Of a stretch of DNA of 64,000 bases, positions 1 through 6,773 are shown one piece after another. The notes under the pieces are model-generated. The model made no database searches. It saw nothing but the letters and a program-made list of their open reading frames with translations, and was not told the origin of the DNA. A program made the position numbers and the translations under genes. The DNA is from an uncultured Alphaproteobacteria bacterium (lineage in GTDB: Bacteria; Pseudomonadota; Alphaproteobacteria; CAAHEQ01; UBA3637), in contig CANPXT010000005.1 in NCBI GenBank assembly GCA_947586835.1, forward strand, positions 3,327 to 67,326, written 5' to 3'. The stretch's first letter is position 1. The number at the start of each line of letters is the position of its first letter.

Positions 1-642
1 GCTCATGCAATTACTGCACGAACAGGCATAGTTACATATTCTGGTCCACATTTTTCGACTTTTGGAATGGAAAAAGGATTGGAATATACAGTTGATTATT
101 TTAGACGTTGTCTTCTTTTAAAGGAAAAATATGAGATTATTTCTTCCGATACTTTTAGTGATGATCCATGGTACTTAAATCAAAAGAATAGGAAATTTAT
201 TCGTAATTTAGGTTGGAATGTTATTCATGATATTCCTCCAGAGGGGATTCAAGGACAATTATATGGAGGCAATCTAACAGCCTTGACTTCTCTTCAAGGA
301 ACGGCATATTATCCTAAAATAAATCGTTCTATTCTATTTATTGAAGATACAGAGGCTATCAATCCATGCAATTTTGACAGATTATTACAAACACTTCTTA
401 TTCAAAGTAACTTCAAGTCTATCAAAGCGTTATTAATTGGTAGATTTCAACTGAGATCTGGAATGAATGAGAATCTGCTTAAAGAAATAATTCACACAAA
501 AAAGAAGTTGCAAGGAATTCCTGTTATTTCTAATGTTGATTTTGGTCATACAACTCCAATTTGTACTTATCCCATTGGGGGAAAAGTTTCATTAAGTAAA
601 AAAATGGGGAAAATATGTCTAACTATAAAGGAAAGAGAATAA
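1..642 (+). CDS. S66 serine peptidase (LD-carboxypeptidase LdcA / microcin-C immunity MccF family), C-terminal part; 5' end lies outside the window
   Basis: The frame is open from base 1 (AHAITARTGIVTYSGPHFSTFGME...). It is collinear with the full-length paralog at 4225-5211 (AHAITSQTGMVTYSGPHFSSFGML, FSDDPW, LIGRFQ, GHTTPI.TYPIGG). Confidence 0.8.
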   Translation, partial: AHAITARTGIVTYSGPHFSTFGMEKGLEYTVDYFRRCLLLKEKYEIISSDTFSDDPWYLNQKNRKFIRNLGWNVIHDIPPEGIQGQLYGGNLTALTSLQGTAYYPKINRSILFIEDTEAINPCNFDRLLQTLLIQSNFKSIKALLIGRFQLRSGMNENLLKEIIHTKKKLQGIPVISNVDFGHTTPICTYPIGGKVSLSKKMGKICLTIKERE

Positions 643-650
643 GTCATTCC

Positions 651-1247
651 ATGAAATCTTTTGCGGAAAATAAATTTGAAGAAATATTGTTGGAAAAATG
701 CCGATCAGCTTTGTCGCTAAAAAATGATATTTCGCACGATATGGCGCATGCTTTACGAGTTATGAAATTGGCAAAATATATTTCCTTTTTTGAAGGGGGT
801 AATTTAAAAATTATCCTTCCTGCTGCTTTGTTTCATGATATCATCTGTTATCCAAAAGATTCGTTACAGACGAAAAATAGTACTACAGAAAGTGCCATTC
901 TCGCTGAACATATCTTAACTCAAGATAATTTACTTTTACCAACAGAAATTCTCGAGGTCAAAAGAATTATAAGTAATTGTTCGTTCTCTAAAAAAATTCC
1001 TTCCACATGTATAGAGGAGGAGATCGTAAGAGACGCAGATTTATTAGAGGCAAGTGGCGCAGTTTCTATTATGAGAACTTTTGCTTCTGCTGGTATAATG
1101 AATCACCCTTTTTATAACCTAACAGATCCTTTTGCAAGACACAGAGAACCAAACGATAAAAAATTATGCGTTAGATCTATTTTTTACACGTTTATTACAA
1201 GTTCGAAAACACTTAAAAACAATAACCGCCAAACAAATTCTAGATGA
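651..1247 (+). CDS. HD-domain phosphohydrolase (YedJ-like), N-terminal portion; the reading frame is lost at the A6T2 run 1158-1165
   Basis: Contains SHDMAHALRV ... ALFHDI ... RDADLLEASGAVSIMRTFA ... DPFARHREPNDK, the HD/YedJ pattern. An ATG at 651 follows an AAGGAAAGAG RBS. The tail after 1165 (LCVRSIFYTF...) is unlike the family. Confidence 0.7.
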   Translation: MKSFAENKFEEILLEKCRSALSLKNDISHDMAHALRVMKLAKYISFFEGGNLKIILPAALFHDIICYPKDSLQTKNSTTESAILAEHILTQDNLLLPTEILEVKRIISNCSFSKKIPSTCIEEEIVRDADLLEASGAVSIMRTFASAGIMNHPFYNLTDPFARHREPNDKKLCVRSIFYTFITSSKTLKNNNRQTNSR

Positions 1248-2070
1248 ACGTGAAGCTTTTTTGAATTCTTTTTTAAAACAGCTTGAAAAAGAAATTGAAC
1301 CTGAAAATGATCTGTTAGAACAAATCAAAGAAGAGGAAAAAAATTGGAGTAAAATTTTTGAAAAAGAAAAAAACAAGCCCTTTAAAAAATTTTCTTCATT
1401 TTGGTGGAAAAAATATTATTCACAAATAACTAAAACTTTGGGGAAATATATCCATCCGGACGACATTATCTTAGAAGCCGGTTCTGGTTCTGGAAAAGCG
1501 AGTTTTCTTCTCGCACCAAACAACAAAAAAATACTTTTGGACATATCTAAAAATGCCCTAAATTATGCAAAATTTTTAGAAAAACAATTAAATTCAAATA
1601 ATACAGAGTACATTATCGGGAATATTTTTAATATGAAAATAGCAGATGAATCTGTTAATTTTTGTTGGAATGTGGGAGTAATAGAGCACTACTCTCTAGA
1701 ACAAGTGAAACTCATTGTGAAGGAGATGTTACGTGTCACAAAAAATGGTGGCTATGTTGCAATTGGCTATCCTAATTTTTGGTCAGGACCTATTTTAAAA
1801 GCATGGCTTCTAAGTTTTCCTTTGTTTAGTAAGTTTCAGGGTTATAGATTGTCTTCTGAACATTTTTATCAAGACAAGAAATTGAAAAAGATTTGCAAAA
1901 TTGTTGATGACGGGAACAGAATTGAATGGGTTAAGACTATTAAAATAGGCAACCCTTTACCAATGGAAACTCCAAAATTAATATTAAAAATAATTGGCCC
2001 GATTTTAAATTTACTATATTACAACAGATTCTTGACATTTATTTTAATCAAAACCAATAAAAAAGGTTGA
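1132..2070 (+). CDS. Continuation frame: YedJ-like C-terminal helices fused to a class I SAM-dependent methyltransferase
   Basis: NYALDLFFTRLLQVRKHLKT.TAKQILDEREAFLNSFL matches the YedJ C-terminus (E. coli YALDHFQTKLLKL...). Downstream, ILEAGSGSGKASFLL is SAM motif I (ExGxGxG), followed by LLDIS, GNIFNM and NGGYVAIG. Confidence 0.7.
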   Translation: MQDTENQTIKNYALDLFFTRLLQVRKHLKTITAKQILDEREAFLNSFLKQLEKEIEPENDLLEQIKEEEKNWSKIFEKEKNKPFKKFSSFWWKKYYSQITKTLGKYIHPDDIILEAGSGSGKASFLLAPNNKKILLDISKNALNYAKFLEKQLNSNNTEYIIGNIFNMKIADESVNFCWNVGVIEHYSLEQVKLIVKEMLRVTKNGGYVAIGYPNFWSGPILKAWLLSFPLFSKFQGYRLSSEHFYQDKKLKKICKIVDDGNRIEWVKTIKIGNPLPMETPKLILKIIGPILNLLYYNRFLTFILIKTNKKG

Positions 2071-2132
2071 CGTTTTCTTCAAATTTTGATATAAACTAGG
2101 TGTTCTTGTAATTCTCAACGTGGAGGATGCTT

Positions 2133-5211: not shown

Positions 5212-5283
5212 TTTCTCTCCTTAGGTTATTTTATCATGATTGTAGTATACACATTGTTTTTAAAAAGTCAACCATAAAACCAC

Positions 5284-5312
5284 TTGACTTTTGTCAAGTT
5301 TTATGGTAATAT
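5284..5312 (+). promoter_or_regulatory. Sigma70-like promoter for glyQS (TTGACT-17-TAATAT) embedded in a 37-nt nested inverted repeat (5271-5307)
   Basis: -35 at 5284-5289, -10 at 5307-5312. ACCATAAAAC (5271-5280) pairs with GTTTTATGGT (5298-5307). The inner palindrome is CTTGAC-TTTT-GTCAAG. Confidence 0.45.
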
Positions 5313-5342
5313 AACAACATTTCAATCAACGAAGGAGGTATC

Positions 5343-6773
5343 ATGGCTGTTCGTACTATGGAAGAATTGGTTTCTTTATGCAAGAAACGTGGTTTTGTTT
5401 TTCAATCATCTGAAATCTATGGTGGTTTAAGAGGGGTATATGATTTAGGTCCTCTTGGAGTAGAATTAAAGAAAAATATCCGAAATGCTTGGTGGCGAAG
5501 TTTGGTATATGAACGGGATGATATTGAAGGGGTGGAATGTTCACACTTATCACACAGATTAGTATGGAAACATTCTGGTCACGAGGATACTTTTTCTGAT
5601 CCTTTGATTGAATGTAAAACATGTCACTCTCGTATGAGACAAGACAAAATGAAAGATGAAACGAAATGTGATACTTGTGGTTCATCCGATTTAACAGATC
5701 CTAAAAAATTCTTATTAATGATGAAAACTAATATTGGGCCTGTGGATGATGGAAGTAGTTTTGCTTACTTACGTCCAGAAACAGCTCAAGGGAGTTATTT
5801 AAATTTTGAAAATGTTTTGCTTTCTATGGGGAGAAAACTTCCTTTTGGAATAGCTCAACATGGTAAATCTTTTCGCAATGAAATTACCCCGAAAAACTTT
5901 TTATTTCGACTAAGGGAATTTGAACAAGCAGAAATGCAATTTTTCGTTCCTCCTGAAACCGATATTGAATGGTGGGAAAAATGGAAAAATATTCGCCATC
6001 AATGGTGGCTTGAGCAGGGAATTCCTGCAGGAAAACTACGCTTTAAGGATCACGAACAACTTGCTCATTACGCGAAGTGTGCGACAGATATTGAATACGA
6101 ATTTCCGTGGGGGTTTGATGAAATTGAAGGAATTCATGATCGACAGGACTTTGACCTCGGTTCTCATACAAAATCTCAAGAAGATTTTAAAATCAACGCA
6201 AAAGTTCTGCCTAATAAAGATTCTACCACACGAATGTCTTATAGAGATCCGTTTACAGGGAAAGAATTCATTCCTTTTGTCATTGAAACTGCAGCAGGTT
6301 TGGATAGAGCCATGATTGCCTTGATCAATGAGGCTTATACAGAAGAAAAATTACCAAACGGAAAAACTCGTACAGTTTTGAAATTAAAGAAGCATCTCGC
6401 TCCTATCAAAGTTGCAGTTGTACCTCTGGCAAAAAATAATCCAGATATTATGATGACAGGTATGAAAGTTCGCCGTGTTTTAAGTGAACTTGGCATAGGT
6501 CGGGTTGTTTTTGAAAATAGTAATAACATAGGGAAAGCTTACAGAAGACATGATGAGATAGGCACTCCTATTTGTGTCACTGTCGATTTTGATACGTTGG
6601 AAAAAGAAAACCACCCAGTAACGGTTAGAGATCGGGATACAATGGAACAGGTTAGTGTTAATATTGCAGATATCGGAAAATATGTTAAAAAATTCTATTC
6701 TAGAGAAACACCTCAACAAGATGTTGAACGTTTATACCAATTTTCAAAAATGAAAGAAAAAGGAAGAGAATAA
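5343..6773 (+). CDS. glyQS: Glycyl-tRNA synthetase, homodimeric (alpha2, GlyQS) type
   Basis: MEELVSLCKKRGFVFQSSEIYGGLRGVYDLGPLGVELKKNIRNAWW. CxxC...CxxC insertion. RPETAQG, FRNEITP, REFEQAEMQFF, and a C-terminal anticodon-binding domain. GGAGG RBS. Confidence 0.9.
   Translation: MAVRTMEELVSLCKKRGFVFQSSEIYGGLRGVYDLGPLGVELKKNIRNAWWRSLVYERDDIEGVECSHLSHRLVWKHSGHEDTFSDPLIECKTCHSRMRQDKMKDETKCDTCGSSDLTDPKKFLLMMKTNIGPVDDGSSFAYLRPETAQGSYLNFENVLLSMGRKLPFGIAQHGKSFRNEITPKNFLFRLREFEQAEMQFFVPPETDIEWWEKWKNIRHQWWLEQGIPAGKLRFKDHEQLAHYAKCATDIEYEFPWGFDEIEGIHDRQDFDLGSHTKSQEDFKINAKVLPNKDSTTRMSYRDPFTGKEFIPFVIETAAGLDRAMIALINEAYTEEKLPNGKTRTVLKLKKHLAPIKVAVVPLAKNNPDIMMTGMKVRRVLSELGIGRVVFENSNNIGKAYRRHDEIGTPICVTVDFDTLEKENHPVTVRDRDTMEQVSVNIADIGKYVKKFYSRETPQQDVERLYQFSKMKEKGRE

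Follow-up and report, generated by a model that had tools for sequence, protein, structure and literature searches.

A candidate agrocin 84-type gene cluster in an uncultured alphaproteobacterium

We analysed a 64,000-nucleotide stretch of DNA from an uncultured Alphaproteobacteria bacterium (GenBank assembly GCA_947586835.1, contig CANPXT010000005.1, positions 3,327 to 67,326 of the forward strand), referred to here as the window. Its first 6,773 positions hold six genes, which encode two S66-family hydrolases, an HD phosphohydrolase joined to a methyltransferase, two truncated paralogs of aminoacyl-tRNA synthetases (aaRSs) and a full-length glycyl-tRNA synthetase (GlyRS). An initial annotation, made from the sequence and a list of its open reading frames (ORFs), proposed that such a locus makes, tailors and resists a mimic of an aminoacyl-adenylate. 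Here we compare the locus with its homologs from other assemblies and samples, which carry the labels L001, L002 and so on, and with the pathways of known nucleotide antibiotics, in particular the agn cluster for agrocin 84.

Genes of the locus

The features are listed below, with the two parts of the HD-methyltransferase gene on separate lines (aa, amino acids; SAM, S-adenosylmethionine; AsnRS and AlaRS, asparaginyl- and alanyl-tRNA synthetase).

..642, + strand: S66a, C-terminal 213 aa of a predicted 331-aa MccF/AgnC5-type S66 serine hydrolase (Pfam Peptidase_S66C, E 1.9e-28)
651–1247 (ORF 615/651–1247), + strand: HD phosphohydrolase part (YedJ-like) of an HD-methyltransferase fusion gene (Pfam HD, E 1.3e-8)
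1132–2070, + strand, +1 frame: class I SAM-dependent methyltransferase part (Pfam Methyltransf_31/11/25)
2133–3149 (start 2127/2133), + strand: AgnA-like enzyme, an AsnRS catalytic core without anticodon-binding domain (Pfam tRNA-synt_2, E 3e-32)
3167–4228 (start 3155/3167), + strand: truncated AlaRS-like protein of an unannotated family, aminoacylation domain plus the start of the tRNA-recognition domain
4225–5211, − strand: S66b, complete 328-aa MccF-clade S66 hydrolase, convergent with the AlaRS-like gene
5343–6773, + strand: GlyRS, dimeric type, full length, divergent from S66b (NCBIfam NF003211; Pfam tRNA-synt_2b, HGTP_anticodon)

The genes and their order as first described are borne out by the ORF list, and Pfam and NCBIfam concur on every assignment. 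The window begins inside S66a, so that the 5′ part of this gene lies outside it; the full-length gene is found in L001 (3142–4137, 331 aa). S66b and the stop codon of the AlaRS-like gene overlap by 4 nt. The segment from S66a to just past GlyRS has a GC content of 30–36%, against ~40–45% elsewhere on the contig. A tRNA-Ala(GGC) gene (L001 2286–2361) lies ~1.2 kb upstream of window position 1, ~780 bp before S66a and in the same orientation. Because of its low GC content and its position after this tRNA gene, we regard the segment as an acquired island, with the tRNA-Ala(GGC) site probably serving as its integration site.

The two S66 proteins are diverged paralogs, as initially described, with 53% identity to each other. 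In a search of all PDB sequences, S66b matched the 'MccF-like' protein BA_5613 of Bacillus anthracis (4E5S/5USD, E 4e-102), with E values of 1e-97 to 1e-102 across BA_5613 and Lmo1638 of Listeria, 1e-40 to 1e-32 for bona fide MccF, the self-immunity hydrolase of microcin C, and ~1e-17 for the murein carboxypeptidase LdcA. Both window proteins share an S66 subfamily with the structures 4E5S, 5FD8, 5USD, 4H1H and 4INJ (BA_5613/Lmo1638), for which no published function was found in the literature. S66 proteins of the cluster are ~49% identical to BA_5613 and ~25% identical to E. coli MccF, and S66b is 68% identical to the S66 proteins of related alphaproteobacterial loci. Against AgnC5, the MccF-like protein of the agrocin 84 plasmid pAgK84, S66a scores 30% identity (E 6e-38) and S66b 28% (E 7e-33). 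The sole NCBIfam hit for both is the muramoyltetrapeptide carboxypeptidase model NF008424, at 70 and 96 bits against a cut-off of 378. In a neighbour-joining tree, S66a, S66b, BA_5613 and all cluster-linked S66 proteins form one clade, while LdcA sits on a long separate branch.

An alignment of the window proteins with MccF (from the mcc plasmid) and LdcA, both of E. coli, shows that the Ser/Glu/His triad is kept in both copies, where GFSD, LF(I/L)EE/D and GHTTP align with MccF S118, E243 and H311. Both also have a substrate loop, SDDPW(Y/F)L(D/N)Q, at a place where LdcA has a gap. The tryptophan of this loop is conserved in at least 95% of cluster S66 proteins and lies two alignment columns off W186, the adenine-stacking tryptophan of the MccF substrate loop. 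The phylogeny and the substrate loop that the initial annotation had singled out as informative therefore both place the two copies on the MccF side, and S66a and S66b are, as far as sequence can tell, MccF/AgnC5-type hydrolases away from LdcA. The positions of MccF R246/K247 are replaced by EDTEA in S66a and EEDEE in S66b. We take these two MccF residues to bind the acidic side chain of the aspartyl payload, a role reportedly described by Agarwal et al. in 2012; since the corresponding positions are acidic here, an aminoacyl specificity other than Asp/Glu would be expected. In a Gracilibacteria locus (L040, 11012–11985), the S66 gene is seemingly split at an in-frame stop under translation table 11, which is consistent with the alternative code of that lineage (TGA = Gly) rather than with a pseudogene.

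The HD/methyltransferase gene, initially drawn as one gene at 651–2070, does contain both domains, but it is not a single intact ORF, and its parts lie in different frames. An intact allele exists in L005, the identical locus from another sample, where it encodes a single 484-aa HD-methyltransferase fusion. Relative to L005, the window carries a 1-nt insertion, a T at 1164/1165 that follows a run of six A residues at 1158–1163. Three independent assemblies (L001–L003) all carry the same insertion, which argues for a real allele and not a one-off assembly error. NCBIfam PRK10119 matches the HD part (E 2.3e-30, under the family cut-off), and positions 167–219 of this profile correspond to residues 10–62 of the methyltransferase ORF; the first ~45 codons of ORF 1132–2070 accordingly encode the C-terminal helix of the HD domain. 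The methyltransferase is 38–51% identical to those of the conserved clusters described below. An MccD-like role for it was considered and rejected, with no specific similarity found (E 0.02).

Over 336 aa, its full length, the AsnRS-like protein shares 43% identity with AgnA of pAgK84 (E 4e-99) and stands nearer to AgnA than to most fellow members of its neighbourhood family. When plasmids were searched by tblastn, the pAgK84 gene agnA ('agrocin 84 synthetase') likewise emerged as a member of this family. The window protein retains class II motifs 2 and 3 as well as the GEI.G..QR signature, so ATP-dependent adenylate chemistry would be expected of it. It resembles the archaeal asparagine synthetase AS-AR of Pyrococcus abyssi and asparagine synthetase A (AsnA) in having an AsnRS-type core with intact class II motifs and without an anticodon-binding domain. 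However, it scores under the cut-offs of all AsnA equivalog and AsnRS models (224 bits against 389 for the NCBIfam AsnA model NF005055), matches AS-AR at E 1.7e-4 in the PDB search, and is far closer to AgnA.

Two plasmid loci of cultured strains show the AgnA-like gene in other company. On a Pantoea agglomerans plasmid (L134, 7707–11065), the match lies inside a 427-aa coding sequence annotated as GNAT, an apparent GNAT::AgnA-like fusion, followed by a major facilitator superfamily (MFS) transporter and a metallophosphoesterase. On Bacillus pseudomycoides pBTZ_2 (L135, 7045–10738), the order is methyltransferase, AgnA-like, ATP-grasp, with an adenosylhomocysteinase close by; an S-adenosylhomocysteine hydrolase (achY) mutant of strain K84 is reportedly agrocin non-producing.

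An AlphaFold2 model of the AlaRS-like protein, built from 26 homologs, has a pLDDT (predicted local distance difference test) score of 92.5, and its best Foldseek matches are AlaRS catalytic fragments (TM-score 0.72–0.74, ~15% identity). The protein stops at about residue 350 of E. coli AlaRS, after the first helices of the tRNA-recognition domain, and is without the editing and C-Ala domains; its TIGR00344 score is 34 bits against a cut-off of 457. Residues were mapped by hhalign profile alignment to E. coli AlaRS, with statistics taken over 223 family members. The motif-2 arginine R69 is retained in 97% of them and N201 in 96%, N212 is retained as well, and an aromatic pair, W98...F102, is near-universal. 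The alanine-binding D235 of E. coli AlaRS is replaced by Glu in 96% of the family (E215 in the window protein), G237 by Ala in 75% and V214 by Ile in 89%. At the motif-3 arginine R242 the window protein has T222, and arginine is not among the five commonest residues at this position. Sequence and model together predict an AlaRS catalytic fold without the motif-3 Arg. The initial annotation had counted two amino-acid-activating paralogs at this locus. This may hold for the AgnA-like protein, whose motifs are intact, but the AlaRS-like protein has lost the motif-3 Arg, and ATP-dependent activation may be absent from it.

D235, G237 and V214 presumably line the amino-acid pocket in E. coli AlaRS structures, and because the three residues are each one carbon larger here, glycine or another very small acyl group would be favoured. 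The residue aligned with E. coli N303, which we take to be the reader of the G3:U70 pair, is not conserved in the family, and the region that we place around D400 presumably lies past the truncation point. A profile search of 1.84 billion representative proteins returned 308 representatives of the family at E ≤ 1e-30. Among the first 90 homologs, the named ones are nearly all called 'hypothetical protein', with one 'alanine--tRNA ligase', and we found no description in the literature of the family or of the gene combination of this cluster. The initial annotation had pointed to a canonical alaS elsewhere as informative; none was found within the 64-kb window, where the large ORFs encode SecA, LeuRS and others.

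Conserved neighbourhood and linked synthetases

An AlaRS-like profile scan with one genome per species gave 37 loci. They come mostly from Patescibacteria (Candidate Phyla Radiation, CPR), and also from gamma- and alphaproteobacterial metagenome-assembled genomes (MAGs), a Calothrix parasitica plasmid, a Chitinophagaceae MAG and an archaeal MAG (L031). By tblastn and ORF clustering, 34 of the 37 loci contain an S66 match, mostly directly downstream of the AlaRS-like gene and co-directional with it. About 25 have an AgnA-like gene, and 19 gave a tblastn match to a methyltransferase and 10 to an HD phosphohydrolase; in three loci, a HAD phosphatase stands upstream of the methyltransferase in the place of HD. 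The commonest order is HD-methyltransferase-AlaRS-like-S66-AgnA-like, while plasmid2 of C. parasitica NIES-267 has methyltransferase-AlaRS-like-S66-AgnA-like; most other clusters keep HD and methyltransferase as two genes. The AlaRS-like domain is also found fused to S66 (L023, 692 aa), HD, methyltransferase, GNAT and receiver domains, and the archaeal MAG has the AlaRS-like-S66 pair.

A second, independent scan of metagenomes with an AgnA-like profile gave at least ~484 tblastn-confirmed stretches; of the 80 loci that it returned, 52 contain an S66 gene and 17 an AlaRS-like gene. Altogether, the AlaRS-like, S66, AgnA-like, methyltransferase and phosphatase genes co-occur in ~60 loci of CPR bacteria, Proteobacteria, Cyanobacteria and one archaeon. 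The neighbourhood, whose conservation had been an open point of the initial annotation, thus recurs in dozens of unrelated genomes and as gene fusions, which argues for an association beyond chance.

The closest alphaproteobacterial relatives (L007–L011, L048–L051) share a 270–282-aa HIT protein (HxHxH), the AlaRS-like gene and a convergent S66 gene. Upstream of these, L007–L011 have a P-loop kinase-like protein (weak AAA_18/AAA_17 match) and a radical SAM enzyme, and in three of the closest relatives GlyRS follows HIT-AlaRS-like-S66, as in the window. AgnA-like genes are also carried by plasmids of Bradyrhizobium barranii and B. elkanii; inspection of one of these loci (B. barranii, L046) showed the genes S66-AgnA-like-HAD-methyltransferase in this order and no AlaRS-like gene. 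Gene order suggests that two modules have merged in the window and that each brought an S66 gene: S66a-HD~methyltransferase-AgnA-like, because of its resemblance to the Bradyrhizobium arrangement, and AlaRS-like-S66b-GlyRS, because of its resemblance to the closest alphaproteobacterial relatives, where HIT replaces the first module.

The AlaRS-like gene is repeatedly accompanied by HIT, S66 and GNAT genes. Several related loci contain Amidohydrolase_2 and radical SAM genes, two further components of agn, and only a few contain ABC exporters. In 11 CPR loci, sensor kinases are found close to the cluster, and in L066 the gene immediately upstream is RelA/SpoT. The CPR loci L013 (2629–3360) and L019 (5971–6672) have a protein of 233–243 aa inserted between AlaRS-like and S66; it carries an 'EFEFDG' motif and has no Pfam, NCBIfam or PADLOC match.

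GlyRS of the window is full length with its anticodon-binding domain (NF003211, 547 bits against a cut-off of 312). Its nearest relatives (60–75% identity) are the GlyRSs of Alphaproteobacteria/Rickettsiales MAGs, so it belongs to the type native to this lineage and did not arrive with the CPR-like genes. GlyRS is linked to AlaRS-like-S66 also in L048–L050, where the flanking genes differ, and is embedded in or duplicated at the cluster in L016, L019, L024, L065, L066, L085 and L097. In the AgnA-seeded set, it occurs in 4 of the 17 loci with an AlaRS-like gene and in 0 of the 63 others (hypergeometric p~0.0015), and three of those four loci (L065, L066, L097) have two GlyRS genes. In L066, the order is AgnA-like-AlaRS-like-GlyRS-S66-(325 aa)-methyltransferase-GlyRS, with 1 nt between AlaRS-like and GlyRS, and in L019 (Staskawiczbacteria) two GlyRS copies, 67% identical, flank the operon.

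AgnA-like clusters without an AlaRS-like gene contain other synthetases. Two LysRS genes flank AgnA-like-S66-methyltransferase-radical SAM in L054; L093 has a divergent LysRS-like gene as well as LysRS, and L110 a LysRS-like gene; a MetRS-like gene lies between AgnA-like and S66 in L062; and AspRS, a second S66, ValRS and LysRS follow the cluster in L021. For aaRS-inhibitor pathways such as albomycin, agrocin 84 and ascamycin, an extra or duplicated target-type synthetase within the cluster is the recognised sign of self-resistance (PMC8323819, PMC12945691). From its recurrence in these loci, GlyRS may be inferred to act as a resistance copy. We also note a tRNA-Lys(TTT) gene directly upstream of the LysRS...LysRS block of L054 (3495–11005), a second case of a cognate tRNA at a cluster with a duplicated synthetase.

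Known pathways and possible function

The initial annotation knew of no described system with this composition, but the agn cluster of pAgK84 in Rhizobium rhizogenes K84 has it (PMC8323819). That cluster includes agnA, the methyltransferase agnB1, the agrocin-resistant LeuRS agnB2, agnC1, which is said to resemble ProRS, and the MccF-like agnC5; AgnA is proposed to join a pentanamide precursor to AMP via a phosphoramide bond (PMC8323819). As annotated, it also holds a short-chain dehydrogenase/reductase, a methyltransferase (AgnC3), an amidohydrolase, a dioxygenase and a radical SAM enzyme, and near it lie two NUDIX hydrolases, an ABC transporter and a further methyltransferase. BLASTP mining in a 2021 survey reported agn-like clusters in Ensifer sp. 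ENS09 and some actinobacteria with MetRS only (PMC8323819).

The window shares with agn an AgnA homolog (43%), a SAM methyltransferase, an MccF-like S66 as counterpart of AgnC5, a nucleotide hydrolase (NUDIX in agn, HD here), a full-length aaRS (the LeuRS AgnB2 there, GlyRS here) and a second truncated class II aaRS-like protein; in agn it is the AgnA-type gene that the methyltransferase follows, and both clusters lie on mobile DNA. The two differ in size, with 17 genes in agn and 6 here, and in the two S66 genes of the window. Homologs of AgnC1, C2, C4, C6 and C7 and of the ABC exporter AgnG are absent here, and when all Agn proteins were searched against the 64-kb window by tblastn, only AgnA, S66 and a LeuRS 7 kb away matched. 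Moreover, the second aaRS-like protein is AlaRS-derived here and unrelated to AgnC1, and the methyltransferase is not of the AgnB1 subtype.

A second parallel is the ascamycin pathway of Streptomyces sp. 80H647 with AcmD, AcmE and AcmF. AcmF is a truncated AlaRS-like enzyme without activation residues, with a D232E change and a W100/F104 adenine clamp; with aminoacyl-tRNA as the donor, it attaches Ala, or alternatively Gly or Ser, to the sulfamoyl nitrogen of an adenosine analogue (PMC12945691). AcmD, an extra AlaRS, supplies Ala-tRNA and resists the product, and AcmE strips the alanyl group (PMC12945691). The window shares the truncated AlaRS-like architecture, the D-to-E change, the aromatic W..F pair at the adenine site, a full-length aaRS in the cluster and a hydrolase suited to removing the aminoacyl group. 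In AcmF, however, the asparagine equivalent to N201 is changed to Q (Q219), whereas N201 is kept here, and the G3:U70-recognising elements are not conserved in, or absent from, the AlaRS-like protein. The acceptor of AcmF is 5′-O-sulfamoyl adenosine, while no sulfur-handling genes are seen at this locus; AcmE is a secreted alpha/beta hydrolase, not an S66 protein; and the linked synthetase is AlaRS in ascamycin but GlyRS here.

Three enzyme classes are known to disarm microcin C, namely S66 (MccF), HIT (MccH) and GNAT (MccE), and MccF homologs that stand alone are established resistance genes (PMC8323819). The triad and a Trp-bearing loop of MccF recur in S66a and S66b, GNAT and HIT genes occur in the same neighbourhoods, and both systems contain a SAM-dependent enzyme (MccD in microcin C). 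The locus differs from microcin C in having no MccB (ThiF) enzyme and no precursor peptide, and its methyltransferase is not MccD-like. A further likeness is to phosmidosine of Streptomyces, which we take to be a prolyl-8-oxoadenosine N-acyl phosphoramidate methyl ester. As an aminoacyl-adenylate mimic with both an N-acyl phosphoramidate and an O-methyl group, it would explain a methyltransferase beside a P–N-forming enzyme. The compound is listed in PMC6429109, and no biosynthetic genes for it were found in the searchable literature.

On balance, we favour the reading that the locus is a compact, horizontally acquired agn-type cluster that would both make and resist a hydrolysis-resistant aminoacyl-adenylate mimic, much as initially proposed. 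The homology to AgnA, the S66 clade, the conserved neighbourhood with its fusions and the recurrent aaRS genes support it. By analogy, the mimic would most likely be an N-acyl-phosphoramidate-linked aminoacyl-adenosine, and the cluster is probably directed at GlyRS.

In the mechanism we propose, the AgnA-like enzyme would use ATP to form a P–N linkage (acyl-phosphoramidate or phosphoramidate) to AMP, as proposed for AgnA. The AlaRS-like enzyme would hold the adenosine in its former ATP site, between W98 and F102, and attach to it a small aminoacyl residue (Gly or Ala), for which aminoacyl-tRNA charged by the adjacent GlyRS may be the donor, much as AcmF draws on its own. These steps would yield an N-acyl-phosphoramidate that mimics glycyl- or alanyl-adenylate. 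Its nucleotide part may be tailored or trimmed by the methyltransferase and the HD/HAD phosphatase, comparable to the methyl ester of phosmidosine or the aminopropyl group of microcin C. S66a and S66b would cut the aminoacyl-N bond of the product inside the producer, an MccF-like self-immunity, and GlyRS, as the target-type enzyme, may be retained as donor supplier and/or tolerant copy, like AgnB2 and AcmD. HIT enzymes act at the nucleotide alpha-phosphate; in the closest relatives, where HIT stands in place of the AgnA-like, HD and methyltransferase genes, it might, speculatively, provide an alternative route to an adenosine 5′-phosphoramidate acceptor.

Several points weigh against this reading. 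The frameshift in the HD-methyltransferase gene may impair production in this strain, and no dedicated exporter was seen in the window. Being of the native type, the GlyRS gene may have no more than a housekeeping role. The methyltransferase bears no specific likeness to AgnB1 or MccD, and an identification of the AlaRS-like protein with AgnC1 was rejected (hhalign probability 0.3). The likeness of the AlaRS-like protein to AcmF is a resemblance, drawn from a comparison with the published description of AcmF. The agrocin 84 pathway is itself otherwise obscure, so that the AgnA reaction is a proposal (PMC8323819).

Among the alternatives, the one that survives best, though we think it unlikely, is that the cluster makes a non-antibiotic internal molecule, such as a signalling aminoacyl-nucleotide or a cofactor, or modifies tRNA or protein, with the hydrolases serving turnover. 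The fusion of a receiver domain to the AlaRS-like domain (P0153), the sensor kinases near 11 CPR loci, the RelA/SpoT gene upstream in L066 and the abundance of the cluster in CPR bacteria with tiny genomes would fit such a role, and HD and HIT enzymes commonly degrade signalling nucleotides. It accords poorly with the patchy, plasmid- or island-borne distribution and the homology to an antibiotic cluster, and it leaves the duplicated target-type aaRS genes hard to explain.

The locus could instead be a resistance or detoxification island that neutralises the aminoacyl-nucleotide antibiotics of neighbours and makes no compound, a possibility to which we assign rather low odds. S66 would then cut the acyl-N bond, HD, HIT and HAD would degrade the nucleotide, methyltransferase and GNAT would modify it, and the aaRS-like proteins would be binding or decoy modules. 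All three microcin C resistance classes (S66, HIT and GNAT) are indeed found around the AlaRS-like gene, resistance by stand-alone MccF homologs has precedent (PMC8323819), an exporter is not consistently present, and the AlaRS-like::S66 fusion of a protein without the motif-3 Arg could be a recognition-plus-hydrolase enzyme. Yet the AgnA-like protein keeps all motifs for ATP-dependent class II chemistry and its homolog in agn is proposed to be biosynthetic, and the tight operons with methyltransferases, radical SAM enzymes and duplicated aaRSs look like biosynthesis with self-resistance.

It is less probable still that the locus is a decaying remnant in this strain, in which only the immunity genes and GlyRS remain under selection. 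The frameshift in three assemblies and the missing exporter point that way, as does the absence here of HIT, which the closest relatives have. But the intact L005 allele coexists in the population, the other genes are full-length ORFs with catalytic motifs, and the split may be tolerated, HD and methyltransferase being separate in most other clusters. Recycling or remodelling of the murein stem peptide by LdcA-type carboxypeptidases and amino-acid ligases, the alternative offered initially, draws on LdcA's membership of the S66 family and on the sole NCBIfam match, but is scarcely tenable given the S66 phylogeny and low scores (70–96 bits against 378; LdcA at ~1e-17 against 1e-102 for BA_5613), the MccF-type Trp loop that LdcA is without, the nucleotide-directed partners (HD, HAD, HIT, kinase) and the AlaRS-like-S66 pair in an archaeal MAG.

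Beyond the favoured agn-type cluster, a wider and quite tentative proposal is that these loci form a large superfamily of minimal 'aaRS-poison' cassettes, in which AgnA-like and AcmF-like, AlaRS-derived paralogs jointly assemble N-acyl-phosphoramidate mimics, with the target matched to each cassette variant. One conceivable route would be aminoacylation of an adenosine 5′-phosphoramidate supplied by the AgnA-like or HIT partner, and a matching of targets would give GlyRS here and LysRS, MetRS or AspRS elsewhere. Such cassettes are especially common in CPR/Patescibacteria, where they could be used in attacking or controlling host bacteria.

If the agn-type reading is true, AgnA-type chemistry would be widespread, with at least ~484 tblastn-confirmed stretches and more than 300 clusters of the AlaRS-like family, ranging over CPR bacteria, gut-type Alphaproteobacteria, Cyanobacteria and Bradyrhizobium symbiosis plasmids, and versions of the cluster would exist in hundreds of uncultured bacteria. 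The predicted targets GlyRS and LysRS would be new; we know of no natural aminoacyl-adenylate-mimic antibiotic against either. The P–N bond formation of agrocin 84, the crown-gall biocontrol antibiotic, would become approachable in a system of 5–6 genes. An AlaRS-derived family with an altered active site and without annotation is now defined, and the structures of the BA_5613/Lmo1638 S66 subfamily would gain a functional setting from the cluster.

Genomic setting and further observations

Beyond the tRNA-Ala(GGC) gene, further upstream, lie a tRNA-Arg(TCT) gene and an N6-type methyltransferase. The tRNA-Ala/tRNA-Arg landmark, with tRNA-Ala at 16301–16376, again flanks the HIT-AlaRS-like-S66-GlyRS block in L049/L050, where ParB, resolvase and DUF2924 genes adjoin. 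A functional tie of the tRNA-Ala to the AlaRS-like enzyme is conceivable. A dedicated tRNA as a general component of the cluster was rejected, as tRNAs had no systematic linkage in 60 other loci. An upstream 184-aa ORF was considered as a remnant of an MFS exporter and set aside; it has a weak Pfam match, two transmembrane-like windows and no similarity to MccC.

S66b and GlyRS diverge from an intergenic region of 131 bp, which contains a perfect 7-bp inverted repeat (5282–5299, ACTTGAC-TTTT-GTCAAGT) that overlaps promoter-like hexamers on both strands. A conserved operator at this place was rejected, as the repeat is not kept in the corresponding regions of L048–L050. Promoter and terminator scans for operon boundaries gave counts equal to the shuffled expectation, and an Rfam scan of the window for riboswitches, T-boxes and other RNA elements returned two distant tRNAs only. 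A role as an anti-phage defence system was also rejected, a PADLOC scan of all components giving no relevant match.

Just past GlyRS, at 7533–7787 (− strand), lies a gene for an 84-aa four-Cys TSCPD-domain protein of the TIGR03905 family. In L004, a WavE/polysaccharide cluster replaces the genes downstream of GlyRS, so the right border of the island is variable. The window also encodes a full-length LeuRS (14183–16684, − strand), which lies 7.4 kb downstream of the cluster and shares 35% identity with AgnB2, the LeuRS that resists agrocin; LeuRS is the target of agrocin 84. Most likely this copy serves housekeeping. Positions 9894–12462, shortly after the island, encode an Hpt protein, an OmpR-type response regulator and a HisKA sensor kinase, and these are followed at 12617–14122 by a gene for a 501-aa ankyrin-repeat protein, which suggests a host-associated lifestyle.

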